Shown here: in pieces, positions 6,946-59,281 of the stretch
Position numbering within the stretch: position 1 is the first letter of the stretch
How the letters are laid out: every line of letters begins with the position of its first letter
Assembly (NCBI GenBank): GCA_013239625.1
Contig: MU053810.1
Span: 2,677,518 to 2,741,517 of the forward strand
Reading direction: 5' to 3'
DNA length: 64,000 nt
Origin: Lama guanicoe
Taxonomy: Eukaryota
Position numbers and translations under genes: made by a program
The notes under the pieces: generated by a model
Database searches by the model: none
Told to the model about the DNA's origin: nothing
What the model saw: the letters and a program-made list of their open reading frames with translations, nothing else

Positions 6946-7089
6946 TTTTTTTTTTTTTTTTTTTGTGGGGATGCTGGTGGGAGGTAATTAGGTTTATTTA
7001 TTTATTTATTCTCAGAGGAGGTACCGCGATTGAACCCAGAACCTCATACAATGCTAAGCATGTGCTCTACCCCTGAGCTATACCCTCCC
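6946..7089 (-). mobile_element. tRNA-derived camelid SINE (Vic-1-like)
   Basis: Poly-T followed by gattgaacccagaacc...gagctataccctccc. Confidence 0.85.
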
Positions 7090-9536: not shown

Positions 9537-9646
9537 GTTGGGCTCATGTGGTTTGTGCCCTTTATATTCCAGAGGTACAGTTTGCCAATGTTTCTACCAT
9601 GGAGCCAATTGTTTTACAGTCTGTTCCACACGATCGTTATAATAAG
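9537..9646 (+). CDS. MLLT10: MLLT10/AF10 coding exon (110 nt), PZP domain: (G)WAHVVCALYIPEVQFANVSTMEPIVLQSVPHDRYNK
   Basis: Acceptor tttttag at 9535-9536 and donor AAG|gtacgg; the translation matches the AF10 zinc-knuckle/PHD2 sequence as recalled. Confidence 0.97.
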
Positions 9647-9967
9647 GTACGGTGAATATTATTTTATTGATGTGTGCATTTTTGTTTGTTTGTTTTAAAA
9701 TTGGGAAGTGTAAAAGAATTTTTTTGTTGTTTTATTATAGACCTTCAGTAAAACAATTTAAATTATAGGCCTCCATCAATTTGGAAAAAGTGTAATTAAC
9801 TGTGTTAAACTACCATTATTAATGTATTTTACTAAGATTACAGGAGTAAAAAACAAACACAAAGAAAACTATATTGCCTTTTACATGAACCTAGGTATTT
9901 AATATTCTGCCATTTACATGGCATTTTTATCCTTACTGATTTGTTCTTTAAGAATTTCTGACCTTTA

Positions 9968-10099
9968 AGGGGGGAGGGTATAGCTCTGTGGTAGAGTGCA
10001 TGCTTAGCATGCATGAGGTCCTGGGTTCAATCCCCAGTACCTCCATTTAAATAAAAACAAACAAACAAACAAACAAACAAACCTAATCCACCCCCCCAA
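9968..10099 (+). mobile_element. tRNA-derived camelid SINE (Vic-1-like)
   Basis: A box tagctctgtggtag, B box ggttcaatccc, (AAAC)n tail; 18-bp TSD at 9950-9967 and 10100-10117. Confidence 0.9.
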
Positions 10100-11469
10100 A
10101 AGAATTACTGACCTTTATGTTCTTTTAGACACTAAAGCACTATTGAAATTGAATGAATCATTATTTGGTATAACATTGATTATGCTGATACTCATCCTGT
10201 CTTAAAAAATAATCCTCTCATAGAATATTGTTTGCTCATCTCTCCTCTCCAAATTATTTTCTGTTCCCAAGAGAGGATTTTTGTTGTTAGTTCTAAAAAA
10301 AAAATCTTAATATTTGCTTTTTTTCCCTGTATCTTTTCCTTAATTTAGTACATATGTATTGTTTCATTCTCTTCTGCATATTGGATGATTTTTTTTTATT
10401 ACCCAATGTGCTTTTAAATACAGTGTTACCATTTAATTGAAAGTACTTGTTGATTTATTCCATCTTTGGAGAAAGTGTCACTGCAGCCCATTCTAAGATT
10501 TCAAAATACTAAACATTTTGGAATGTAGATTGTTAATACTTATTTTAAAAGTTGGAAAATACAGAAAATTAAATAGGAAAATGCATGACAAAAATCATCT
10601 AAAATCTTCCCATGGAGATCATTTGGTGTGCATTTTTATGTATACTGTATACTTGTTAAAAAATTTGAATCATGTTGCTTACACTATTCTGTTTTTGAAA
10701 CTTACTAGCCCTGAACATCTTTTTGTGTCAGTAAATTATATTTTGCTGTGATTTTTGTGGATACATAGCATGTAATACAAAGTATTAGGAACTCCCTATT
10801 GTTGAAAGTCCTCACTTAGTGTTTAGCAGGTACATATCCAGCAGAATTTCTGTTTAAAAAGGTATGAACATTTTGGAAGCTTCAGTAAATATATTGTGTG
10901 AAATTGTCCTAGAATGCAGTTTCTAACTTAACCACATTAGTGGTATGGGAGGTACTCATAATCTTATATTCTGTTAAGTACAGTGTGTATTACCATTTAA
11001 GTATGATCTTTTTTATTCTTTCTAGTGAAAAATATTACAGTGTTTGAATGGCTTACTTTGAATACTGATGAAGTTAAATATTTTAAAGATTTTTAGAAAG
11101 CTTATTCATGTCTGTTAATTGACCTTGAATAGCTATTTGTTCCTTTTAATATTGTAATGTTTTAATTTTTTAATGGAGTGTTGTTTTTTTTTTTGTATAT
11201 GGAAGATATTATTCTTTTGCTCTGTATACTTGCTGTGAATGCTTTTGTCCATAATTAAACATTTGGTTCTTAATTTTCATTATGTCTTCACGTTTTTTAT
11301 TGTTGTTGGTATTCTAGCAGGTTAATTTTTTCTAATTCAGAAGTTTAAAGTTTTTATATAATTTACACAACTACTCTTCATTATTTCTCCTTTTGTTGCC
11401 ATGTAAAGAAAATCTTTCTCTACACCAACGTATAAACATTTTTTGTACTTTCAAAATTAATTTTAAAAA

Positions 11470-13060
11470 ATACTTGTTTTTTCTTTCAATTTGAAATAAT
11501 TTCAAACTTACATAAAGGTTGCATTAATAGTACAAAGAGCTCTTCCTCTCCTAAACCATTTGAGAGTGATTTACCAGGATAACACTGAAACCCTGAATGA
11601 TTTAGTGTGTCTTTCCTATAAAGAAGAACATTCTTCTATGTGACCAGAATACAGCCATCAAAATCAGGAAGTTAACATTTATGCATATTACTGTCTAATC
11701 CAGAGACTTCATCATTATTTCCCTTATTTTCATTCATGCCTTTCAGTTTTCTCAGTAATGTCTTTCATAGCAGAAAGATCATTGATTGCTTTTTGTCTCT
11801 TAAATCGCCTGAAATCTCAAAATAGTAAATCTCAAATAGTAATTCATTCTTTCTCTGACTTTCATAACTTTGATACTTCTGAAGATAACAGGCCAGTTAT
11901 TTATAGAATGTCCTATTTGGATTTTTATGATGTTTCCTCATGATTAAATTCAGATTATGTGTTTTTGGCAGGAATATCACAGAAGTGATGCTGTGTTCTT
12001 CTCATTGCATCCTATCAGGTGGTACATGATTTCAGTTTTTCCCACTACTGGTGATGTTACCTTGATCACTTGGTTAAGGTGGTGTCTGCAAGATTTCTCC
12101 ACTGGGAGGTTAATTTTCTTTCCATCTATAATCAATAAGCATTTTGTGTGGAAGTACTTTGTATGTAAATATCTTGCTCCTTGTTCCTTTTACCCACTAA
12201 TTTTAGCATCCATTGTTGTTTCTTTGCTTAATTAATAATACTGATTGATGGCAAGTGGCGGTTTTCTAATTCCATCTTTTACATTCATCATTTGGCATTC
12301 CACTTAAGGAAGAGCTTTCTTCACTCCCCAGTGAAGTAATATAAATAGTAGTATGGACTAATACAGACTTGTGTGTTACTATTTTATTTTAATGGGTTGT
12401 TCCCTGTTACTGTCATTTATTGTGATGCTCAGTTGTCTCAGGTTTGGGCATTGGGACCCTTTCAAGTTGGTTTCTGTGTCTTTTTTGACATGTTTCTATC
12501 ATACTTTGAGCACTTCTCTGCTTCTGAGATGACAGTATGTTCCAGGCTCATCTTTTACCCTTCCTGTTTTAGCCCTGGAATAACCATTTCTCCATGGAGC
12601 CTTGATTCTTTTTAGGTGAGGATGGTAATTAGAAGCCAAAGTGGACACTACGTGTGCTCATTGTTACTGGGATGTTGCTACTTCCAGGCCCTCTCATTGT
12701 ACATGCAGAGATACACACACATTCACATCTGTATCTTCTCTATACTTGGAAGACAGTGAGATCACAAGGAGACTTCTGATTTAGTATAAGAATTGGATAT
12801 ATTTACATACATACATATCTATATATATTTCTGTATCTACTTATCTATCTGTATAGGGAAAACCGTAAACTCTTAGGAACTTCTTAGTAATTTCCCTAAG
12901 CCTAATCCAACAACACAGGGTTCATTCTAATTTGTTTTTCTTTTTGTATTTATGACTCTCATGCCAGATGGTGAGAAACCTGTCTCCCATTATCCTCAAT
13001 ATATTTATTTATTTACTCAATCTCTCTTGTATTAACCTACCTTCCATTGCTGCCGTCCGC
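11470..13060 (-). mobile_element. Old L1 (L1MC/L1ME-like) 3' region
   Basis: ttgaaataatttcaaacttaca...; ggcaggaatatcacagaagtgatg; ccttgatcacttggttaaggtggtgtctgc. Confidence 0.65.
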
Positions 13061-15269
13061 TAATACAGAGGCCATCCTAACCTCGTTAAGTTTCTACACC
13101 TCACTCTGAGTTGTTGCCGCTTCCCTGCATGGTTGCCCTTTTTGGGGAGAGGGGGGTTGACACCCAGCTTCAGTCCACCACTACCCCTTCTCCCCTCAAT
13201 AGCTGGTCTCCTCACCTTGCTCAGGTTCTGACACTTCACTCTGACACTACCTCCACCCTGACACTCTCATGGAAGCCAGCCCTCCTGGGAATCTGTCACT
13301 TGAATTTGACTGCCCACTCCTTCCCAATATGGATGCTACCATGATTCACCCAAGCTCATGAATTTAAGACTAAAGTATTCAAGAAGTAAGGGAGGGAGTA
13401 TAGAAGGAAGAATAAATTATTTAGGTATAAATCTTTTACACATTTAGAGTGAGTTTTAGAACATAGTGAGATATGTGTTTAACTTTTCTGCTCCCCCATG
13501 GTTTAGTCAACCTTTTCAACATTGTTACTGAATAATCTATATTTTGCACAGTGATTTGAAATACTATTTGAATCATTATTAAATTCTTGGGTATTAATGA
13601 CATCTTTTCTGTTCAGTTGATGGGTCTGTCTATTCTTATCCTGGTACCACACTGTTTTAAATTATTGTGGTTTTAAATACATCTTGGTAGATGGTAGAGC
13701 AAATATTGTCATGTATTTCTTTTTTCAGATGAACATTAGGACTAACAAAACACAAGTTTGATTTTACTGGTGCTATAGTAAAATATTATTTTGGGGAAGA
13801 ATTGATCTTTTTGCAATATTAAATCTCCTCTTCCAGAAACATGGTCTCTCTCCATCAAATTTGTTTTTTTGTTCCTTTTTATAGTTTTCCTTATATATGG
13901 TTGTTATATATGTTTCTAAGATTTTTATGGTTTTTGGCCTGTATAGTTAAGTTAACCGTAGAAACTCAATAGTATTCTGTTCATGAATATTCAGTGTGGT
14001 TAATAGGGGACATGTAATGCTGAAATGATAGGAGCAATTGGTAAGAGGATTGTTGAAATTTGGAAGGCATCAGTGCTTAATGGGTGGTAGTAAAGGATAA
14101 TTTAGAGATTATTTGTTAGTCTATTGGGAACTTACTATAGACCTTACCTGCCTTGTAGCAAGGATTGTGCTAGATGCTAGGAGTTCAAAGATGTGTAAAA
14201 TAATAGTTTTTCTCCATGTGACACTTTCAGTTAGACAGTCAAGTAAATAATAAAATTATAGTGTATTGAAAATAATACTAAGATGTATTATAAATTATAA
14301 TAAGCCTGAATGGATTATGATGGAACAAAATGAAAGAAGAGACTGTTTTTATCTGGAATTAAGTAGAGCACAGAAAGATATTATAAGATCTTTGCAGAAT
14401 AATAAGGAATTTGACCTGTGGAAAAAAGAATCAAGTAATTCTAGACAGAGAAAGTAACATAAACTAGGGTAATATGTGCAAAGGGGAGGTGGTAGGCAGT
14501 TCAGAGAATAAGTAATCCTGTGTGGCTTGAACATTGTGGGATTTAGGGGAAAAAAAGGAAAAATTTGTAGCATATTTGTATAGCGTATCCAGATTGCAGA
14601 GAATTCAGTGTTGACCTGTTGTTAAATTTTCCACGTCGTTAAATACATAGTGGCCAGTTTCTGTACCATTTGTGATAAGATTCTTGTTATCTCTTACATT
14701 TTCTTGTATCAGTTCCCCATTTCACTGACACACACATTTTGTTAATACACTTGAGCGGTATATGTTACCTTTAAGTTGTTACCGTTCAATAATTTTTAAG
14801 AAATTGGAAGACTGGGGCAACGTAAAGATTTTGGAACTTTTTTGGATGGGAGCTTGTGTTCGAGTCAAGGAAGCATTTAGTTTAAAAAGCTACAGTTTCC
14901 ACAGAGTGGTTGGCAGCTAATGTAGTTATCTTGGATTTATCCTTTGGAATAGTTTTTATTTATCGCGTGGCCATGAAGGAATGAGTGTTGGTGTAAGTAT
15001 AGGAAGGATCATAATAGACCAGCCAGACAAAACAAAAACAACATAAAACGTGATGTCATTGGATTTTAAAAGCTTAATGGTAGAGGAAAACTTAGAAATT
15101 GCTAGCCTAACTGCCCTTCTTTTTTTTTTTTCCTGAAGGAATTGTGGGGGATAGCTCTTAAGAAAAGTTTTAATTAATATATTTAGCACCTGGGTGAAAA
15201 TTTTTGAAAGTACTAAACATTATGATTTTTAGGATTCCTCTTAGTGCTATTTAAAAAGCCAGGTTTCAG

Positions 15270-15734
15270 TCTCCTCCCCAGACCCCACTGCCTGAGGGCG
15301 CTGGAGTCAGCAGCTGCAGCCAGGGCCCCTGAGCGCCCTGCGTGGTTCGTGGAGGGGGCCCCCTTTCTTGGAGGGGGCCGCTCCATTCCTCTCTCCTACA
15401 GACCCAGTACCCCTTCCTGGTAGTCAGTCCCGGCAGGGTGAGGTTCATGTGTTGGAATTTCCAGCGCCTGAGCACCGGCTGCACGGGGCACCAGGCAGGC
15501 TGGGGAGGTTTGAATCCAGACCTGCCGCCATGCGCTATGTGACCTTAGGTAAAATACTAACTCTCCCTCTCTGGACTTCCCACTGCCAGGCCTCAGAAAG
15601 AGAGCCTACTCCTTTCTCAAATTTAAGAATGTAGGCGAGTTGGGATAGCTGGCTTATGGTTTTCTTAAGAAGTTTATTAAATAAGGTTCATGTGAGCAAA
15701 AAAAAAAACCATAAAATAAAACAAGATAAAATTA
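15270..15734 (+). pseudogene. 5'-truncated retrocopy of a GC-rich transcript 3' end; parent not identified
   Basis: Abrupt GC-rich block; ATTAAA at 15676-15681; poly(A) from 15698; 15/17 TSD at 15253-15269 and 15735-15751; TT/AAAA site. Confidence 0.75.
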
Positions 15735-15750
15735 AAAAAACTAGGTTTCA

Positions 15751-15879
15751 GGGGAGTGTATAGCTTATTGGTGGAGCACGTGCCTAGCATGCACGAGGTC
15801 TTGGATTTAGTCCTCAGCACCTCAATATACGTACATACATAAAACCTACCCCCCCCCAATTAAAAAACAAAACAAAACC
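15751..15879 (+). mobile_element. tRNA-derived camelid SINE (Vic-1-like)
   Basis: ggggagtgtatagcttattggtggagcacgtgcctagcatgc; TSD AAAAACTAGGTTTCAG. Confidence 0.85.
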
Positions 15880-15919
15880 AAAAACTAGGTTTCAGACAGC
15901 AGAGCTAAACATTTCACAC

Positions 15920-16760
15920 GTCCATCCCTTCATCTAGCCATTATTTGTGGCATGTCCTAGTATATGTACCAGGCACTGTTGGAAGCATGAAGAAAAACAG
16001 AGCTCCTATATGGTAGGACAGACATACAAAATTCACGATTGTTGAAAAGGGTAGTATGTGCAGGGATTCCAGAATACAGAGAGCGTGAACCTAGTCTAAC
16101 AGGGCTGAAGAAAGAGAGGGAAGGTGTCTTAAAATAGGTTGCAGCTTCTCTGAATTTTAAAGAGTTAGGAAGGGAGGAGAAGAAGGGAGGACATGAGTGG
16201 GTATTCATTTTACAGACTGAAAGAGCAAAAGCTTTCAGGTGGGAAATAACAGGGAGGGTAAGCAGGGAGGGAAGCGGGGATGGCGGTGAGGGAGAAGGAC
16301 AGTATTGCTAGGACTTGGGGAGTGTGACGTGTGGAATGCTGAGAGAAGTTGTCAAGGACCAGATTTTCAGGGGCCTCACATAGCCTGTTAAGGAGCTTGC
16401 ACTTTATCACTATTGAGAGGTTTTTGTACTTGGTAGGGAGTTGCTCAGGTGTACCACTCTAGTGGATTGTGAAAGGAGGGTTGGGAGAGGGAGGAGAGAA
16501 GAGACTAGAGTAGTTGCATAGAAACCACTTAGGCTTTTGCAGTGTTCCAGGGAGGTAAAAGTGAGGGTCTGAAGTAGAAGAGTGCTAGGAATGAAGAAGG
16601 GACAGAGACATTTAGGTCACATGTAAGAGGTTCAGTTGACAGGGCTTGGTGACCAGTGAAGTGACCCAGAAGATGAGGGAGGAGGAAAAATCAGAATGGT
16701 TTTTCAGTTTCGAGAAGGTATGTTCTAGGCACATTATCTATCACCACCTGAGGTAGAGTA
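15920..16760 (-). mobile_element. LINE-2 fragment
   Basis: atgtaccaggcactgt start and a purine-rich body typical of antisense L2. Confidence 0.6.
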
Positions 16761-16991
16761 TATATAGAGGAATCAAGTTAATTGACACATTTCTTAGGAC
16801 AGTGACATTAACTTTTAAATTCTTGGTTTATGTTGGTGAGATTTACTTCCTTGTTTGTAAAACAAGTCTTTTGTCTACAAGTTGTTCACTAGCATATATT
16901 AACAATATGACAGTAGGCCCCAAGATACAATTCACATTTCTGCTAAAGCATTAAATGTTTGCTTTCATATTTATCTTAATACATGTTTTTT

Positions 16992-17158
16992 TATCTTTCA
17001 ATTTTATTAGGTAGAATTGTTACAATTTGACTGCACAAATATAGTATATTGCATGTAAATACATATATACAATATACTGCACATGTATTTTTTAGTTTAC
17101 ATATATGTACTGAGCATTGTTTCGAAGAACAGTTCAGATCTTTAGCTTTTAAAACTTA
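16992..17158 (-). mobile_element. Short 5'-truncated retroposon related to the 3' tail of the 35.7-kb element
   Basis: Perfect 17-bp TSD CTTAATACATGTTTTTT (16975-16991, 17159-17175); about 72/84 hand-aligned identity of 17076-17159 to 35740-35822. Confidence 0.8.
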
Positions 17159-20009
17159 CTTAATACATGTTTTTTGCTTGGCACTTTATCCTAATTACTC
17201 AAGTGAACACTTAAATTCGTATTTTCTTTTCTGGACAATTGAATCATTTGGAAAAGCAAAACAAACTTGCAAATGTATTTATAAAAAACCCCTTTTGCTC
17301 TTTTGGGGTACCTCAGCTGATTCTCTATTTAAAATTTCCCATTTGGCTTCTCTGTATTGTCTTTGCCTCCCTTCCCTCAATATATACATGCACACATTAT
17401 GTTGTATTTGGTATTCTTTTTTTCTCAGGGAATAGTAAATTATTTTTCATTGTATTCATTATGTGTGTTGTGCTTCTGTGTTCAGGTTCACTTCTGATTA
17501 CCTCCTTTCTCTCAACTCCAAGGCTCAGAGGCTGTTTATTAAATAGGGTTTACTAAGGACTATGGAAGAATGGCAGTGTAATTTCCTTCAGTGTTATTTC
17601 TTTGCTCTTCTTCCTTCAAAGGTGACGTTCCAAGCTAAACTTCTGGAAATGGCAGTACACAGTGGTTAACTTCAAACTGTTCATGGGATTAGACTCTAGT
17701 TTCACCAACATACAAATTGCCTGTATCAGTTTTTTTTATGTTCATTTGATGTCTTGGATACTCTAGATGATAGATATTTCTATTACCTTCTAAGTATAAT
17801 TGATTAAGAGATAAGATTTTATGAAAACCCACGCTTAAAGGGAGAGATCGCATTGCTAGGTAATACAGTATTAAGACAAAACAAGTCAGATTTGACAAAT
17901 TTAGTTTTTCCCTACAAGCAGTATTATAACAGGAGGATAGATTTGAGATCGGAGATTCATTCTAGACAGAAATTTTTATGAAGCTAGCCTAAGTACAAAT
18001 GGGGTTGGCTGAAGGCTAAAATATGCAGTTTATAGTATTTTAGTGTTTTATGATACTTTATTATGGTATTATAAAGGCATATAACATAAATGGGGAGTTG
18101 ACCTGGAACTAGAAAGTCAGAGACTGCATACTGTCCATTCCATCTTTGATGAGGGTCCTACAGCCTGTTTTATGTCTGTAGTCTCTTTCTGCTTCCATGT
18201 AATTTCTAATTCTGCTTCCCATTTTATCTGAGTTCCCCGTAGGTAACTGACTCAAGAGTCCCAGTTCTAAATTTCTAAAAGCAACTCTGGTCTAGGCACC
18301 TGGGCTTAGAAGCCATATTACCTAGAAAAACATGGATACTTGGATATAATTTCTTCATTAGAAATTAAGCTTAGAGGATACTTTCTACATAAGAGGTATG
18401 AGTTGTCTGGGTTCACTTCTTTACCTTCTTGTCCCATAAATGATCTATTTAAACAACTGTAAAAAAAAAAAGCTGATAAAGTGTTCTTGATGTACATATA
18501 GCAAATCAATTATATAAGCTTATTTTTTAATTTTCATGTTCTGTGCAAACTTGAGAATTTGTCCCTTTTTTGCAGTAAGTTAAAAGTGCATTTAGTAATT
18601 CACAAGGGAGTTTTGGGGCAACTTTTAAGAGGTGGCTTAAGGTCACTTGATGACTTCATGAGAAACAGATGCAGGGATGATTGTGTGCTGGGACTTCTTG
18701 TTTTCTCGTATAATACTAGCACATTGAATTATGGCATAAATTATTAGCTTACTCTATTTCAACTTGGAAACCATCTGAATAAAATTGAGAAAAGTGTGAG
18801 CTTTGTTATTTGATTTTAAAACAGTTAAGTCTTAGCAAAGTGCATCAGGTTGCCAGGGAGACGTACTTTAAAGGCACGTTAGATTTTTTTAAATCAGTGA
18901 AACCTTTTTTGGCTCATGAAGATTCTGAAAAAACCTGGGGAATCCTTCCCAGGATAATATACTCCCCTAGTAAGAGGTAACAAAATATTTTACATGTTCT
19001 CTCTGAAGAGTCCTGGGAATACCCCTTGATAGATCCTCAGGCCCTGTGCCTCCCAGTCATGATGAGGATTACCAAAATTTTATAGTACAGTAAATAATAG
19101 TTAAATAGTTTAATATTGTATGTGTTTAAATGTATAAATGTATTTTTAATATTTTGGCATATTTTTTAATCTGTGAGTAAGAAAAGAGTTATATTTATGC
19201 CAAATATACAGATTTTATTCCTGTCTCTTTACTTATTTTTGAGTGACTCTAACTGTAATGTTTCTACTGTAATTTGCTTGACCAGTCCCATATTAGTAAA
19301 CATTGAGGTTTATTCATATATTTTTGTTATGAATAAAAGGATGACAAGAATCTTGCTCCACTAAGCTTCCTGTGCACCCCTCCCCCCTGCTCCCATGTTT
19401 TGGACTTTTGCCTTTGGCTAGAAATCTAGAATTAGAATTACTGTGTCATAGATGATACCTTTATCTATAATTCTCTTAATATTGCCTCATGGTTTCCCAA
19501 ATTTATGTAGCTAATAATTTATGAAAAATGCCATTTTTACCACACCATTGCCTGTACTGAGTTTTTAATCATTTTTAATATTTATTAATTTGATAATTGA
19601 AAAATGATAGTAAATTTCTGTAATTTTCATTTGTTTGGTTAATTGTCAGGTAATCAGAGTGGTATTTCTTCATGTGAATTGTCTATAATTTTTGCCCGTT
19701 TATCTCAAACTACTAGGCTTTTTAGTTACAAGCTCATTCAATAATGATGCTAAATTTTTGCCTGTATATTCCACAGATATTTTTCCACTTTGCCTTTTAG
19801 TTTTGGCTGCTTAAAGAAAATACAGACACACAGTTACGCTTTATAAGAAAAGTTTTTTGGGGAGATGGCAGGAGGAGTTGTCAGCTATATAGGATGATTA
19901 AAAGGTTGAATCTTTCAAAAGCAATTAGGTTGTATAGTCATATACAGTGTTCCTTGGCTAGTAGATTTATCACCCTAAGATCTGCATCCATCCATGTGAT
20001 GTGTTCCCT

Positions 20010-20690
20010 TTGTCTCTGTGCTTTCCTGTAGCCATCTTATAAGAACAATGGTCATACTGAATTAGGGTCCCACCCCACCCCACTGTAACCTCATCTTAAC
20101 CGATCACCTCTGCAGTGGCTCCTTTTCCAAATAAGGCCACATTCTGAGCTACTAGGGGTTATTAGGATTTCACATACCTTTTTGATGGAGACACAGACTA
20201 ACACATAGTAGTCTGCCCTCTGCTCCTGTCCACTTCCAAATTCATATCTTAGCACATGCAAAATACTTTTATTCTGTCTCAGCATCCCTAAAGTCTTAAT
20301 CCATTCCAGCATCAACTCTTAAGTTCAAAATCTTATCTAACTATAATAATCTCAGAACTTCCAAATCCTGTCCTCTGAATCATGTAAATCAGGTATCGGT
20401 GAGGCTATGAGACTCTGGGTGTAGTCCATTCTGTGGCAAAATTTCTTTTCATCTGTGAATCTGTGCAATATAGAAAAGTAACTTGCTTCCTAGATACAAT
20501 GGTAGGACAGGTGTAGTATAGACTTCCTATTCCAAAAGGGAGAAATTGGAAGGAATAAAAGAGTAAGTGATATAAAGCAGGTTTGTAACTCAGCAGGAAA
20601 AATTCCATTAGGCTCTAAAGACCTGAGAATAATTCTCTGTGGCTTGATGATCTGCACCATGAACCCATTGGGGTAGCCCTGCCCCTTGGT
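20010..20690. mobile_element. MaLR (MLT1) LTR end plus internal sequence
   Basis: tcatactgaattagggtcccacc...ctcatcttaac...tttccaaataaggccacattctgag; ttccaaaagggagaaattggaagg. Confidence 0.65.
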
Positions 20691-22018
20691 CCTTCTCTAA
20701 TGATACTTTATATTTAGGTTGAAGGCTGGAGTTTTGAGTTTTTTGGTGCCACAGAGATTGATTTTTCTCTGCTCTTTCCTTTACCACGCTTTGGTCCGTC
20801 TGTTGTGCTTAATTGCTGTTGTTTGTTATTTGATGTTTTGGGCTTGGGATTTCTCTGTTGCATTGGTCCATCCTCAGTCCTTGGCAGGTGCTGTATATCT
20901 GGGCTTCAGGATTTCACCACTTCATTCCCTTGTCCCTTTGGCAGACTTTGCTTTTGCATCTGTGGAAGGAGTTGTGAGGGAGACAGCTTCCTGCCTCTCC
21001 CCAAGTGCTAAAAGACCTCTGATAGTATTGTTATCGGATCCTGGGGTTGGGAGTTTTTCCTGCCCCTCACTTAGGGGTGAAAGATTTTTTTCCCTTTGTC
21101 CTCCTCACCATCACGGGTCTTTACTCGTGCCTGGTGTGACAGGGTTTGCTGCTAATCTTCCAGATGCTCAAGGCTTTTGAAAGGAGTGTCTGGGCAAGAG
21201 GTAGGATTTCATATCTTTCCCTCAGTGATGTTTGGTTGTCTTCTTCATGCCTGCATCACAAGGGAGATTCTTTCTGGTTGTTTTATCTCCTTGCTTCCAA
21301 TCTTCCCCAAGAGCTCCTTGTAAGTAAGTGTTCACAGAGTGGAGCCTGTGAGTGGGTGTGACCTCTTATGTCTGTGGTTCTAGTGGCTCTGTACTATTGC
21401 AGTAGTCCACAGTCAGCCTTTAGCAGTGTGTTAACATTTTAGTCAATTTCTTACCTGCATGTCTTCCTCTGCATATTCTTCCCTTAACTCTTCTGTCATT
21501 AGTAGATAGTCTGAGTGTATTTTGCTTTTTAGGGGTCTGTGGGGGAGAGCATGTCTGCCCTTAGATTTCAGTTTATTTGGTTGCCTTTGCAAATGCAAGT
21601 CTTCCATAGTTTTAAGAAGAGTTGTGATTTTTATAGTTTAAATGACTTTCTGGTTAGGTTTGGAGTGATGTTCTTTTAGGTATGGTTGGAATTTGATCTC
21701 TAGATCCTCTTGATAGGAACACTGTTTCTTTTATTTAAAAAATTAGGTCAAACTATCACTTTTTTTCTCTTAAAGTGAAAACTTTCAGGCTATAAATTTG
21801 CTTCTGAGCATAGCTTTATTCACATACTTGGCATTTTAGTTTGATGTGGTTTTGTTTTTTTGGGGAGCATTTTCTCATCCTCAAGTTAATGAGATTTTTA
21901 AAATTATCCCTTTTTTTCCTACTTTGATTCACGTGTCTTGGGAGCTCTTTTTATGCTTATAATTGTTATATCTTCCTGATGGACTGGCCTTTTTATTATA
22001 AGATTCTGTCCCTCTTTT

Positions 22019-22089
22019 ACACACTGATCGCCGTGTCCCCCGAAGTGTTTCCTCAGGAGCATCCAATCCACAGCGGGCAATCAGCGTGT
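22019..22089. repeat. 71-bp CpG-containing element with terminal inverted repeats (MITE-like hairpin, family not recognised)
   Basis: ACACACTGATCGCC (22019-22032) vs the reverse complement of GGCAATCAGCGTGT (22076-22089): 12/14 match. Confidence 0.6.
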
Positions 22090-22103
22090 TAAAAATGTTT
22101 TTG

Positions 22104-22218
22104 CTGTGCTCTTTTCCTCGTAGGGTCCAGGGTGCATTGGCTGCAAACAGCATTCTCCTTGGTAGTGTATGCAGCCTGTTACCTGTATGGATTGCCCTAA
22201 GGGGCCTTGAAGACAGCC
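22104..22218 (+). ncRNA. SNORA70: SNORA70 (U70) H/ACA snoRNA retrocopy, 5'-truncated
   Basis: ttcctcgtagggtccagggtgcattggctgcaaacagcattctccttggtagtgtatgcagcctgtt...aaggggccttgaagacagcc resembles SNORA70 throughout; H box ACAGCA at 22147-22152; ACA at 22213-22215; lies directly upstream of an RPL10 acceptor, as in the native host gene. Confidence 0.88.
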
Positions 22219-22262
22219 CTTTCCAGTGGACATTCATGTCTGGCATACTGTCCCCAACCTAG

Positions 22263-22640
22263 GCTCTAGACAGGTGTGCGTGGTGCCTTAGGAAAACTCC
22301 AGGGCATGGCTAGGTCCACATTAGCCAGGTCATCATGTCCATCTGCACCAAGATGTAGAATAAGGAGCATGTGATTGAGGCCCTATGCAGGGCCAAATTC
22401 ATGTTCCCTGGCCACCAGAAGATCCACACCTTGAGGAAGTGGGGATTTACCAAGTTTAATGCAGATGAATTTGAAAACATGGTGGGAGAAAGGCGGCTCA
22501 TCTCTGATGGCTGTGGGGTCAAATATATCCATAATTGTGGCCCTCTGGACACATGGTGGGCCTGTGCGCAGGAGAGCCTTGGCTCTGTCCCCTCCTTACT
22601 CACGCCCACCAGCAAATCCTACTTTCCTGTCAGAAAAAAG
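22263..22640 (+). pseudogene. RPL10: RPL10 retro-pseudogene fragment (last two exons spliced, 3'UTR, poly(A))
   Basis: Translates RL*TGVRGALGK...[53 protein letters not shown], matching the RPL10 C-terminus; stops at 22267-22269 and 22356-22358; A-rich tail at 22632-22640. Confidence 0.95.
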
Positions 22641-25600
22641 AAAAGGTTTTTGTTTTAGAGTCTGTTTTTTGGTCTGATATAATGCTAAGCCATTCCAGCT
22701 GCCTTGTACTTGGCTTGTCTTTTGCATGATATTTCTTTTTTTATCCTTTTACTTTTAACTTATTTGTTCTTCATATCTAAAGTATGCATCCTCTAGACAG
22801 CATATGGAACTTGTTTTTTTTTAATCTAGTTTATCAACCTGTCTTTTGATTGGAGTATTTTCATATTCATTGCTGTTATTAATAACGCGTGGATTTACAT
22901 CTGCCATTTTACTGTCTGTTTTCCTTGTCTTGTGACTTTGTTCTTTCTTTTTTTATACTACCTTTTATCTTTTTGTAAGTGGATGTTTCCTGGTGTGCCA
23001 TTTTCATTCCTTTCATGATTTTTAAATTAATATTTTCTTGGTTTATTTTCTTAGTGGTTGCTCTCCAACTTACAGTATTCATCCTTATTTACCATAATCT
23101 ACTGAACGCCAGTAATATATAGAAAATTAATTTCATTTCTTCCCTCACCCCATGCTATTATTATTATAGATACTGTGTCTCTATATATACCACAAGCCCA
23201 ACAATACAGTGTTCAAATTACTGCTTTATATAATCTTATGTCTTTTAAAGAAGCTAAGAGAAGGACGCCACATACATGTTTAAAGAACGTGTGTGTGTCC
23301 ATGTACACACACGTGTATTCCTGTTTACGTTTTGTTTTTCTTCATTTCTTCCTATGGGTTCCAGTTACCATCTAGTGTTGTTTCCTTGCTCCAATAATAG
23401 CTTTATTCCCACCCTCTTTCATTGTGTTGTGACTATCAAATATATACATTTCTATGTGTTGTAGTCCCAACAGTACAATTTATGGACATTGTTCTGTGTG
23501 ATTGCTTTTTAAATTAAGAGAGCAATGAGGAAGAAATAGCTATCCATACTGTCTTATTATTTCCTACAAAATTACCTTTGTCAGAGCTCTTTGTATGTGT
23601 TTTTCAATTGGTCTATATTTATTTTTTAAATTTCAGCTTTATTGAGGTATAATTGATGGGAGCTCTTTGTTTTTTTGTGTGTGGATTGCAGTTACTGTCT
23701 AGTGTCACTTGATTGTAGCCTAAAGAATTTCCTTTAGTATTTCTTGTTAATCAGGTTTGGAGCAACAAGTGTCTCAGTTTTTGTTTGTTTGAAAATGTTG
23801 TTATTTTACTTTTATTTTTGCAGCATAGCTCTTCTGGATATAGGATGCTTGGCTGACAGTTTTGTTCTTTCAGCATTTTCAATATGTTACTCCACTGCCT
23901 TCTTACCTTCTGTCTCCCATTCTTTCTTTCTTTTTAATTGAAGTATAGTCAGTTTACAGCGTTGTGTCAATTTCTTATGTCCAGTGTAATATTTCAGTCA
24001 CACGTACACATACATGTTCCTTTTCATATTCTTTTTCAAATGCCACAGACTTTGACTGTTCTTACTGAGATTTAGTGGATTGTTTTTGGATAAAATTTTC
24101 TCTTTGCTGCATGTCTTTAGGACAATTTTCAGAGACTTCATTATTTTAAAAAATTTTAAATTGAATTATAATTGGTATACAATATCATATAAGTTACACG
24201 TATACAGCATAGTAAGTCACAGTTTTTAGATGTTACATTCTGTTTATCGTTACGAACTACCTACTCTGGTCCTTGTGCTGAACGATGTGTCCTGGTAGCT
24301 TGTTTCATACTGAGACTTTGGTCCTTTCTCACCTGTGAAGTGGTTAATTCACTGGGGAGAGGATCCATGAAGCTCTTCACCCTGCCATTGCAGAAGTCTG
24401 GAAGGCCTGTCTCCTTTTTTTTTTTTTTAAATATCCATCATAACTTTTTGTTTCATTTAATTCATCATTAAAGAAGAATAATGACGTCCTTTCACTGTCG
24501 GCATTTTGGAAGTTACTGAGATAATTCTTTGAGGCCTGTATTCATATTTTTCCTGAATTTTGCCTTATAAAATGTTACTGTTTTACTGTGCTCTGTCCTT
24601 TACTTTTGAAAGTCTTATTGATTATTTATAGGCTAAAAAAATGTACGTTAAATTCTTCCATTGTAAGCGTTTGATGCCGCCTTCTGGTAATTTGAAGTTA
24701 GAGATGCCCTTACTCAGTGTCTAGGTTAGTTGTCGTAAGTTGGGATCTTACTTTTTAGGGGTATAAAATAATTTCTGTAATTCAATTCAGTCTGAATCCT
24801 TGTCATTAAGTAAAGGAGTTGAAATTAATTCACCTGACTAGATGTTAGGCTTTTTTGGGAACTGTGTTCTTATAAATATTGTCGAGTGATGTTATTTGAC
24901 ACCACAGTGCATAGTGGAGGAAACGTCTCCAGATTTAAACGTACATGTGATCCTATTGAAGTTAGCTAGGTTATACTTTATTACTGTTCAGAAATTGGTT
25001 TCTTTTTAGAATTAGCTCATCTGATTTAGTTAGGCATGAGTTTTTGTGTACTCAACTTCTGGTCAGTTGATAATCTTATTCATTATACACAAATACTTGT
25101 AGTTTGCCGTTATATAATTTAGTCTTTCATGACAAGGTGGTACTGTCTATCAGCTGTTTTCCCCTGGGTGAAGGACCAAATAGATGTCAAAAGTTGCTGG
25201 AAGTGTTCATTGGCCAGTACCTTTGGGGGACATCTCTGATCTCCTAAAGTGTCTTCCTCCAAGGCCTGGTGTGTCAGGTTGGCAGGGCTGAATGATAGCT
25301 CATGTGGGATTCTTGTGGACAGTTGGAGTGGCCTAAAGCTTGTTCACTCATGTAGGACTGTCCCTCACCTCTTAAGTCCCAACTCCCTGTATGAGACTCC
25401 TTTACATATGCTTACTTCCAGCAGAAGAGAAAGGCAAACTTCTTTTTACACCCTTATGACAGGAATCAGTTAAATATTGGTGAGGAGGCTTTGAGACTGA
25501 GGTGGGGTAGGCAATGTCCTGCCCCTCTGGCCTTTGTGCCTGTGAAAATTCTTCCTATCTTGTGGTGTTTTTGAGTCTAAGGAAACAGTGCCTTGTGAAA

Positions 25601-25824
25601 TCCTACTAGGACTATTTATGTGTCTTTGTTGATGTTTTCATGTTTGTGTTGTTTGTTAAAATTAGATTACAGTCAGAAAAAATGAATTCATGTTTTGAAA
25701 TAGAGTAGGTTAGATTGTAAACCTGATCTTGACTTCTGAAGATAACTGTAAAATCCAGATTTGTATAAAGCATTTGTAAGATTTTAGTTTCATGTCATTT
25801 TTGTTTTTGTTCCTCTACCCTAAG

Positions 25825-25928
25825 ACTTGCTACATTTGTGATGAACAAGGCAGAGAAAGCAAGGCAGCCACTGGTGCTTGCATGACGTGTAATAAACACG
25901 GATGTCGACAGGCTTTCCATGTGACATG
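25825..25928 (+). CDS. MLLT10: MLLT10 coding exon (104 nt): TCYICDEQGRESKAATGACMTCNKHGCRQAFHVT(C)
   Basis: ccctaag acceptor and TG|gtaagt donor; frame continuous with the previous exon; PHD Cys/His pattern. Confidence 0.97.
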
Positions 25929-35715: not shown

Positions 35716-38360
35716 TTTTTTCTTTTTTCTTTTTTATTCACTGCACATACATTTTTAAATTTACATGTATGTACTGTTCATTGTTTCTAAGAACGTTTAG
35801 AGCTTTAGCTTTTTAAACTTACATAGTTATCAAAGGAATAAAGCCAACCACAAAATAAGAATTAATTCAAAAAGATACATACACCCTTCTTATTAACAGC
35901 AACATTACTTATAATTGCCAAGATATGGAAGCATCCTAAGTGCCCTTCAATAGTTGAATAGATAATGAAGGTGCAGCATATACATATGTAATGGAATACA
36001 ACTTACCATAAGAAAGAAGGGTATTTTGCCATTTGTGGCCCTTCATTCACCTTTTTTTTCCACTTAAAAAACCAGAATTTTATAACTGGCAGAGACATTT
36101 CCATTACATCAAAAAACCCCAAAATACCTAGAAATAAACTTAACCAAAGAGATTACCTATACTCCGAAAACTGAAATGACACAAAGAAATGGAAAGCTTT
36201 CTTGTGCTCTTGGACTGGAAGAATCAGCACTATCAAAACGGCCACACCGCCCAAAGCGATCCGCCGATCCAGTGCAGCCCCCGCCAAAATACTCAAGGTA
36301 CTCCTCAGAACTAGAACAGACAATTCCAGAATTTATAAGGAACCACAAACGACCCCAAACAGCCAAAGCAATCTTTTGTAGGTCTTTTTTTCCTCCTTTT
36401 TGTTTTCTTTTTCTTACGGTTTGATGACTAGAGAAAGTCGTCTAACATTTGTTGTAAAGTTGGTTTGGTGGTGCTGAAATCTGTTAGTTTTTGTTTATCT
36501 GTGAAGCTTTTGATTTCTCCATCAAGTCTGAACGAGAGCCTTGCTGATAAGAGTATTCTTGGTTGTAAGTTTTCCTCTTTCATCACTTTCAGTATATTAT
36601 GCCACTGCCTTCTGACTTGTAGAGTTTTGCTGAAAAATCAGCTAATAATCTTATGAGAGTTCCCTTCTGTGTTATTTGTTGTTTTTCTCTTGCTAATTTT
36701 AATATTTTCTCCTTATCCTTAATTTTTGTCAATTTGATGACTATTTGCCTTGGTGTGTACCTCTTTGGATTAATCCTGTGTGGTACTCTGTGCTTCCTGG
36801 ACTTGGGTGACTGTTTCCTTTCCCAAGTTGGGAAAGTTTTCAGTGATTATCACTCTAAAAATCTTCTCAGGTCCTTTCTCCCTCTCTTCTCTTTCTGGGA
36901 CCCCTATGATGTGAGTATTAGTATGCTTCATGGTGTCCCAGAGTTCTCTTACACTGTCCTCATTTCTTTATTATTGTATTATTTAATTATTTTATTTTGG
37001 CAGGGGGTGGAGGAGGTAATTAGGTTTATTTATTTTTGGAGGAAGTACTGGGGATTGAACCCAGAACCTCATGCATGCTAAGCATACACTCTACCACTGG
37101 AGCTATACCTTTCCCCCATCCTCATTTCTTTTCATTCTTTTTTTTTTTTTTCTGTTCTGTAGTGGTGATTTCCAGTGATCTGTCTTCTAGCTCACTGATC
37201 TGTTCTTCTGCCTCATTTAGTCTATTCTTGGTTCCTTCTAGTGTGTTACTCATTTCAGTGATTTTATTCTTCAACTCTGGGTATTATTTGTATTTTCCAG
37301 CTCTTTGCTAAAAACTTCACTCTGTGCATCTGTATGCCTCTTGAGTTCTCTGAACATCTTCACCATCATTACTTTAAACTCTTTCTCAGATAAATTGCCT
37401 ATCTCTTCATCACTTATTTCTTTTTCTGGGATTTTATCTTATGCCTTGGCCTGGGTAGTATTCCTTTGCCACTTCATATTGTCTATCTTTCTATGTGTTT
37501 GTGGATTCCTTCCATAGACTTTGAAATTGTTGTTTTCTTATTTCTGGTATCTGCCCCTGGTGGATGAGGCTGGACTAGAGGCTTATGCAGGTTTCCTGGC
37601 AGGTGGAGCTAATTCCTGCCCACTGCTGGGTGAAGCTTGGTTCTGGACCTCTGGTTGGTAGGACTGTGTCTAGAGGTCTTTGTGGCTTAGGAAGTCTGTG
37701 TTCCCACCCTTTATGTTTTTTGGCCTGAGGCTTCTCTACAGGCTGTTGGATGGGGCTAGGTCTTCATGCTAATGATCCAATAAAGGTGGCAGCCTCCAGG
37801 AAAGCTCATGTAGAGAATATTCCTAGAATATCCACCGCCAGCTTTTATGTCCTCTGGGTGAGCCGCAGCCGTTCCCCATGTCCCCAGGAGACCCTCCAAA
37901 TCCAGCAGGCAGGTCTGGTCCAGGTTTCTATGAAATCACTGCCTCTGCCCTTTGACCTGGCACACATGAGTTTCCATGTACAATTCCCAAGCAAATGGAG
38001 TCTCCGTTTACCCCAGTCCTGTGGGGCTCCCAGATCCAAGCCCTGCTGGCCTTCAGAACCAGATGTCCTGGGGCCTCGTTCTCTTCCTTAGGGCTCTCAC
38101 TCCTGTGGGAGGGCCTCTGGGACTTCACTCTTCTTCAGCGTGTGGGTCGCCCTCCCAGGGGTCTGGGGCTGAATTATATCGCGAGTATGCCCCTTCTACT
38201 GTTCTGCTGTGGTTCCCTCTTTATGTTCCCAGTTGCAGAAGGTCTTTTTTGCTAGGTTCCAGTCTTTCGATGGTTGTGTAGCATTCAGTTGTGGTTTTGT
38301 TGTAGTGGCGAGGAGAGGTGAGCTCATCGTCCTGCCAGTCTGCCATCTTGACTGGAAATC
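35716..38360 (-). mobile_element. Half-L1-like chimeric retroelement: L1 5'UTR + ORF1 (minus strand), inverted ORF2 fragments, non-L1 3' tail and poly(A)
   Basis: The minus strand gives ...NLQPRILLSARLSFRLDGEIKSFTDKQKLTDFSTTKPTLQQMLDDFL* (stop at 36428-36430); plus-strand ORF2 pieces at ~35870-36040 and ~36095-36376 (ELEQTIPEFIRNHKRPQTAKAI); T-rich tail at ~35713-35738. Confidence 0.75.
36970..37118 (-). mobile_element. Vic-1-like SINE nested in L1 ORF1
   Basis: TSD TCCTCATTTCTTT at 36957-36969 and 37119-37131. Confidence 0.88.
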
Positions 38361-39123: not shown

Positions 39124-39248
39124 GAGGGGGAGAGTATAGCTCAGTGGTAGAGTGCATACTTAGTATGCATGAGGTCCTGGATTCAATCCCCAGTACCTCC
39201 ATTAAATAAATAGACATAAATAAATAAATCTAATTACCGCCCCCGCTC
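39124..39248 (+). mobile_element. tRNA-derived camelid SINE (Vic-1-like)
   Basis: tatagctcagtggtagagtgcatacttagtatgcatgaggtcctggattcaatcccc. Confidence 0.88.
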
Positions 39249-59189: not shown

Positions 59190-59281
59190 AGGGGTTGACT
59201 GATTTATGGAGGTACCAGGGATTGAACCCAGGATCTCTTGCATGCTAAGCATGCATTCTACCACTTGAGCTATACCCTCCC
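59190..59281 (-). mobile_element. tRNA-derived camelid SINE (Vic-1-like)
   Basis: gggattgaacccagg...gagctataccctcc; TSD tctctta(t/c)tccttttt. Confidence 0.85.

Follow-up and report, generated by a model that had tools for sequence, protein, structure and literature searches.

Host intron and anatomy of the retrocopy

The stretch of DNA analyzed here, a window of 64 kb, carries exons of MLLT10 (AF-10), a gene of human chromosome 10. An exon near 27.3 kb of the window matches human AF-10 in PDB (E 2.9e-17), and further AF-10 motifs were found on the plus strand at positions 9554, 25840, and 25870; the contig of the window had no match to the AF-10 zinc finger in Pfam. The host intron spans 16 kb (9647-25824), with its donor at 9647 and its acceptor at 25823-25824. 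Because AF-10 exon motifs on the plus strand flank the element on both sides, the retrocopy lies in sense within this MLLT10 intron, as a preliminary description of the window had stated. The features are as follows.

9537..9646, + strand: MLLT10 (AF-10) exon 5′ of the host intron; AF-10 motif at 9554; splice sites read
22020..22088, no strand: short dispersed repeat with inverted ends and TTAA-like flanks; 24 other genome matches with 82-95% identity; not part of the retrocopy
22092..22103, + strand: 5′ TSD copy at a TT/AAAA site; RPL10 homology starts right after it
22104..22218, + strand: SNORA70 nt 20-135, with nt 1-19 absent; Rfam 96.1 bits; 104/115 identical to parent; H box, ACA box, and 3′-hairpin guide intact
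22219..22262, + strand: complete 44-nt RPL10 intron tail 3′ of the snoRNA, including the 3′ splice-site AG; 42/44 identical to parent
22263..22421, + strand: RPL10 penultimate exon, disabled by one stop and two deletions; 139/159 identical to parent
22422..22631, + strand: RPL10 last exon (coding end and 3′UTR), 80-nt intron gone, stop codon and poly(A) signal mutated; 182/210 identical to parent, gap 0
22632..22640, + strand: decayed A-rich tail, beginning at the end of the parent homology, 15 nt past the parent's poly(A) signal
22641..22652, + strand: 3′ TSD copy, 11/12 identical to the 5′ copy
25825..25928, + strand: MLLT10 (AF-10) exon 3′ of the host intron; AF-10 motifs at 25840 and 25870; splice sites read

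A search of the element's own genome with the element as query gave 42 matches at 30 loci. The parent is the RPL10 gene at locus L012 on contig C3191 (genome G000), an intact seven-block gene region with introns, in which a 135-nt snoRNA is followed by a 44-nt intron tail, an exon, the 80-nt last intron, and the last exon. The element aligns to it in two blocks (287/326 and 184/213 identical) that are split exactly at the last intron, and the junction 22421/22422 is an exact exon-exon join without a gap. All parts listed in the preliminary description were recovered by the parent alignment, Rfam, and the TSD comparison: the segment 22104-22262 aligns to the snoRNA intron of RPL10, the 44 nt read as the end of that intron correspond to the parent's tail, and the last intron, said to have been spliced already, is precisely missing at 22421/22422. 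The SNORA70-like sequence was confirmed by Rfam (RF00156; E 1.7e-17, cut-off 40), but it is not a complete snoRNA, as the absence of nt 1-19 had been missed. The Rfam match extends to 22086 solely because flank and TSD were aligned with positions 1-19 of the model, and the real homology starts at 22104.

The TSD is 12 nt long, one copy adjoining the start of the RPL10 homology and the other the end of its A-tail; allowing at most one mismatch, the 12-mer occurs at just two further sites on the plus strand of the 64-kb window. The reading frame of the retrocopy is broken by a stop at the exon's second codon, by 3-nt and 1-nt deletions, by a further 1-nt deletion, and by loss of the stop codon, and the poly(A) signal carries two changes relative to the parent. 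The copy thus starts within the snoRNA without upstream intron, keeps the entire downstream intron and processed 3′ exons, and ends in an A-rich tail at the host poly(A) site within a TSD, all of which are features of Type-3 snoRNA retroposons. We conclude that the segment 22104-22631 is very probably a Type-3 SNORA70 (U70) snoRNA retroposon composed of snoRNA nt 20-135, the intron tail, and two spliced RPL10 exons, inserted in sense, likely made by L1 and likely non-functional.

The dispersed repeat at 22020-22088 lies directly upstream of the retrocopy; it measures ~90 nt elsewhere and is 14 nt shorter here, and its right TTAA supplies the TT/AAAA site where the retrocopy inserted. By its ends and flanks it looks like a miniature DNA transposon, presumably of a piggyBac-like kind. 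The T-rich flanks at ~21700-22015 and 22653-23100 presumably resemble an old antisense L1 fragment. Elsewhere in the window, five tRNA-like matches (7016-7087, 9974-10045, 37040-37112, 39130-39201, and 59207-59279), 83-93% identical to one another, are probably the heads of a tRNA-derived SINE.

The SNORA70 family and the template of the copy

The Type-3 snoRNA retroposon ("snoRT") was defined by this layout, truncated versions included, in the study of Weber 2006 (PLoS Genet 2:e205, PMC1687206), whose text presents U70/RPL10 as the commonest Type-3 case and main example. Among 42 processed pseudogenes of RPL10 in human it classes 30 as Type-3, of which 12 have a partial snoRNA and 12 lie in sense within introns, and it reports further U70 copies in rat, mouse, elephant, and rabbit (PMC1687206). 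Retroposed U70 copies with host exons, which the preliminary description called known in mammals, are the prototype of this class (PMC1687206). The MLLT10-intron copy shares with the Type-3 U70 elements described there the whole or partial snoRNA, the entire downstream intron, the processed last two RPL10 exons, the A-tail, the TSD, and the often sense position in a new intron; it belongs to the partial-snoRNA kind and differs in locus and species only (PMC1687206). The insertion points of Weber 2006 were confirmed by interspecies alignment (PMC1687206); that of the MLLT10-intron copy was placed by sequence comparison within one genome.

According to a genome-wide survey of retrogenes of the H/ACA class (Nucleic Acids Res 35:559, PMC1802619), U70 has been copied more often than any other H/ACA snoRNA, with 21 human copies (U70b-U70v), six of them 5′-truncated. 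None of the 21 U70 rows of that survey is assigned to human chromosome 10, so the MLLT10 insertion is not among these human copies (PMC1802619). Our literature search found no report placing SNORA70 in MLLT10, co-mentions being unrelated table rows and Weber's full U70 list lying outside its reach, and no report on a snoRNA retroposon in camel. The MLLT10-intron copy adds a new locus to a class that was published in 2006 and is common in this genome; it is real, yet ordinary.

At least 26 SNORA70 matches in the genome exceeded the cut-off (42 candidates scored), and the MLLT10-intron copy ranked 20th of these 26 by Rfam score. The spliced junction of the last two RPL10 exons that marks Type-3 elements was present in 17 of the 25 non-parent matches. 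Likewise, 17 of the 25 non-parent copies align from position -4 to +2 relative to snoRNA nt 1, and the upstream intron was absent in all 24 non-parent copies in which it could be measured (at most 17/40 matching); the remaining copy, L057, was dropped because its count was a contig-edge artefact. As the census searched with the snoRNA model, copies with upstream intron would have been caught. The 26 matches do not represent 26 independent events, because some duplicate one insertion: L042, L048, and L052 have the same upstream flank, and L057 shares the downstream flank of L042, so that these four are, judged by their flanks, likely DNA duplicates of a single insertion.

The census indicates a template class of RNA whose 5′ end is that of the snoRNA itself. 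Most likely, the template of the MLLT10-intron copy, too, had the snoRNA 5′ end as its start instead of being a whole mRNA with a retained intron, since its sister copies mostly start near snoRNA nt 1 and none carries the upstream intron; the copy itself begins at nt 20, so its own template end is unreadable and the argument is carried by the sisters. The preliminary description had proposed a polyadenylated RPL10 RNA that retained the snoRNA intron while the last intron was already spliced. The kept intron tail and the spliced last intron agree with this proposal, but retention of the whole intron does not fit sister copies that lack its upstream part.

Combining established L1 biology with the family census, we propose the following route. 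An RPL10 transcript would have been trimmed from its 5′ side as far as the protein-bound snoRNA, the 3′ part of the trimmed RNA having its last intron spliced and being polyadenylated. The L1 endonuclease would then have nicked the TT/AAAA site, and target-primed reverse transcription, primed on the poly(A) tail, would have halted 19 nt before the RNA 5′ end, so that the copy would have been born without the 5′ strand of the first hairpin's basal stem. An origin by this route was proposed in Weber 2006 for elements of this class (PMC1687206), and an RPL10-SNORA70 transcript shortened at the snoRNA is reported from human cells (PMC12152556). That 3′-shortened, snoRNA-retaining RNA is the likely kind of template: like the MLLT10-intron copy it has been cut back to the snoRNA 5′ end or its vicinity and runs into the host exons, but it is a living RNA in human cells, whereas the copy is a genomic fossil (PMC12152556).

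Alternatively, the template could have been a full-length RPL10 mRNA with the whole snoRNA intron, on which reverse transcription chanced to stop within the snoRNA. The copy does start inside the snoRNA with its template end unseen, and intron-retaining full-length RPL10-SNORA70 isoforms are described from human cells (PMC12152556). Of the readings considered, this origin comes nearest to the wording of the preliminary description. We nevertheless regard it as improbable, as none of the 24 measurable sister copies reaches the upstream intron and the alignment of 17 of 25 starts a few bases at most from snoRNA nt 1. With the template headed by the snoRNA as the preferred reading, the MLLT10-intron copy is one more fossil of a snoRNA-headed, spliced, polyadenylated RPL10 RNA in the germ line, of little weight when taken alone.

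Several other loci differ in their make-up. L055/L030 (G000:C5471:47261-47868, minus strand) begins close to the snoRNA 5′ end, has lost neither the intron tail nor the last intron (gap 83 nt), and has a short terminal A run; it is likely the retrocopy of a snoRNA-headed RNA that was wholly unspliced. L037/L029 (G000:C55230:17770522-17770700, minus strand) and L050 are Type-2-like, with snoRNA and intron tail alone; L037 stops at the 3′ splice site, an A run comes next, and its identity to the parent snoRNA is 95%. Seven of the 30 loci (L010, L013, L015, L020, L023, L025, and L026) are RPL10 processed copies of the conventional type, which have upstream exons but lack a snoRNA; two of them (L013 and L015) additionally lack one internal exon.

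Structure and drift of the snoRNA part

The homology of the retrocopy starts at parent snoRNA nt 20, straight after the TSD, and the missing nt 1-19 are the 5′ strand of the first hairpin's basal stem. Whole-snoRNA minimum-energy folds gave an H/ACA shape for neither parent nor copy, and per-hairpin folds were used instead. The first hairpin folded with -24.0 kcal/mol in the parent and with -12.8 kcal/mol for the same genomic span of the copy. In the predicted pairing, the 3′ strand of the basal stem finds an upstream partner with a probability of 0.18-0.33 in the copy and of 0.98 in the parent. The pair of hairpins with basal stems that characterizes functional H/ACA snoRNA is therefore lacking, and with the basal-stem 5′ strand lost at birth the copy would not fold as a two-hairpin H/ACA RNA. 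The 3′ hairpin of the copy folds no worse than that of the parent (-21.6 vs -17.3 kcal/mol), in a different register. The H and ACA boxes are intact, the latter 3 nt from the 3′ end, and both guide strands for 18S U1692 are unchanged; against the genome's own 18S rRNA they form 5+5 bp, as in the parent, 14 nt from the ACA box. A blind guide-pairing scan was not specific and ranked other 18S sites over U1692, and the U1692 pairing was then tested directly.

A snoRNA in use should have changed less than the dead exons attached to it. Compared with the majority of the other copies, the snoRNA part differed at 13/115 positions and the exon part at 42/412 (P=0.70), and at non-CpG sites 101/111 positions of the snoRNA and 352/393 of the rest were identical to the parent (P=0.41). 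This equal drift gives no sign of purifying selection on the snoRNA part, with the reservation that 115 nt have limited power against weak constraint. The drift test flagged constraint strongly at one of 24 loci (L034, P=0.00026) and weakly at another (L035), and the detection at L034 indicates that it has some power. The retention of ~16 box and guide bases has a chance of ~0.24 at ~8.5% private change and is not telling either way.

It could be argued that the MLLT10-intron copy is a working relocated snoRNA, processed from the intron, whose 3′ hairpin, being intact, would direct pseudouridylation at 18S U1692 in spite of the damaged 5′ hairpin, as a one-and-a-half-hairpin H/ACA guide. The sense intronic position and the intactness of both boxes and both guide strands speak for this idea, and U1692 is listed as the target of human SNORA70 copies, among which expression is listed for the retro-copies SNORA70C, F, and G (PMC3766210). 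Moreover, AluACA RNAs and telomerase RNA are described to accumulate with an aberrant 5′ hairpin, aided by a special 3′-hairpin motif (PMC5207380). We consider this function very unlikely, as 19 nt are missing, the basal stem of the first hairpin is not formed, there is no excess conservation, and the Rfam score is low within the family. Both H/ACA hairpins are described as being loaded with proteins together (PMC5207380), and a eukaryotic H/ACA RNA cut to one hairpin is reported to have reduced activity (PMC12745780). Compared with the functional intronic H/ACA snoRNA SNORA70 (Rfam RF00156), the MLLT10-intron copy shares the sequence family, the H and ACA boxes, the 3′-hairpin guide for 18S U1692, and the sense intronic position, but it lacks nt 1-19 and the hairpin-1 basal stem and shows no constraint signal. 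The preliminary description proposed that the snoRNA had moved into a new host intron, oriented for expression; the missing 19 nt and a drift equal to that of the exons give no support to a usable snoRNA having been carried there, which is unlikely, and the retrocopy was likely dead from birth.

A role at the level of the host transcript is also very unlikely. The retained splice acceptor and exons might act as a cryptic exon altering MLLT10 transcripts, since the AG of the 3′ splice site has been preserved in sense orientation, and Weber 2006 raises this possibility for Type-3 elements in a discussion that records no case (PMC1687206). It is opposed by the lack of a donor at the spliced junction, the two changes in the poly(A) signal, and the early stop and frameshifts. 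A DNA-level duplication of the RPL10 3′ part followed by intron loss or deletion, with which the presence of an intron piece would agree, has a negligible probability and was rejected in view of the precise exon junction left by removal of exactly 80 nt, the end of homology at the poly(A) site, the A-tail, the TSD, and the lack of parent flanks.

Age, distribution, and an apparently constrained copy in HEXA

Sites differing from both the parent and the majority of copies numbered 45/527 (8.5%), nine of them in the snoRNA (hand count). The neutral rate is near 2 per billion sites per year, and with this rate 8.5% private change gives a loose estimate of roughly 40 million years for the insertion. 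The retrocopy, as a likely non-functional element, would thus have been decaying neutrally for roughly tens of millions of years.

A search of sequencing runs returned 24 rows, of which 14 DNA rows contain 0.87-0.99 of the sampled words, the insert making up 40% of the query. After subtraction of five possible source rows, nine DNA rows from five studies with five coded organism labels remained, containing 0.87-0.97 of the words. Because of the insert's 40% share of the query, these rows must contain most of it, which speaks for presence and not for fixation and suggests that close relatives have the insertion in common. Phylogenetic work could use it as a presence/absence marker. Of the rows from RNA or guessed RNA, six contain 0.42-0.51 of the words; they may represent pre-mRNA or DNA and give no evidence of snoRNA expression.

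A better lead than the MLLT10-intron copy lies outside the window. L034 (G000:C5737:19701584-19701718, plus strand) is a full-length Type-3 SNORA70 copy with intact boxes, located in sense between exons of the beta-hexosaminidase alpha gene HEXA (60 of 424 frames scanned). COBLL1 and a Ras-family gene had been guessed as its host and failed (among 150 of 151 matches listed). Its snoRNA differs at 7/134 positions, compared with 68/403 in the intron and exon part (P=0.00026, ~0.006 after 24 tests; P=0.017 when tested against the parent), and its Rfam score of 153.6 bits exceeds the 145.5 bits of the parent. From this sequence comparison, L034 is a candidate for a living retro-snoRNA whose snoRNA looks selected. 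The census shows retro-copies of one snoRNA spanning the range from dead on arrival in the MLLT10 intron to apparently selected in HEXA. In a small way, this span directly tests the proposal of Weber that working backup snoRNAs arise by retroposition. A second full-length copy, L035 (G000:C4963:3203747-3203881, minus strand; Rfam 150.2 bits), shows a weaker excess conservation, with 9/134 differences in the snoRNA compared with 51/397 (P=0.033 uncorrected; P=0.15 against the parent).
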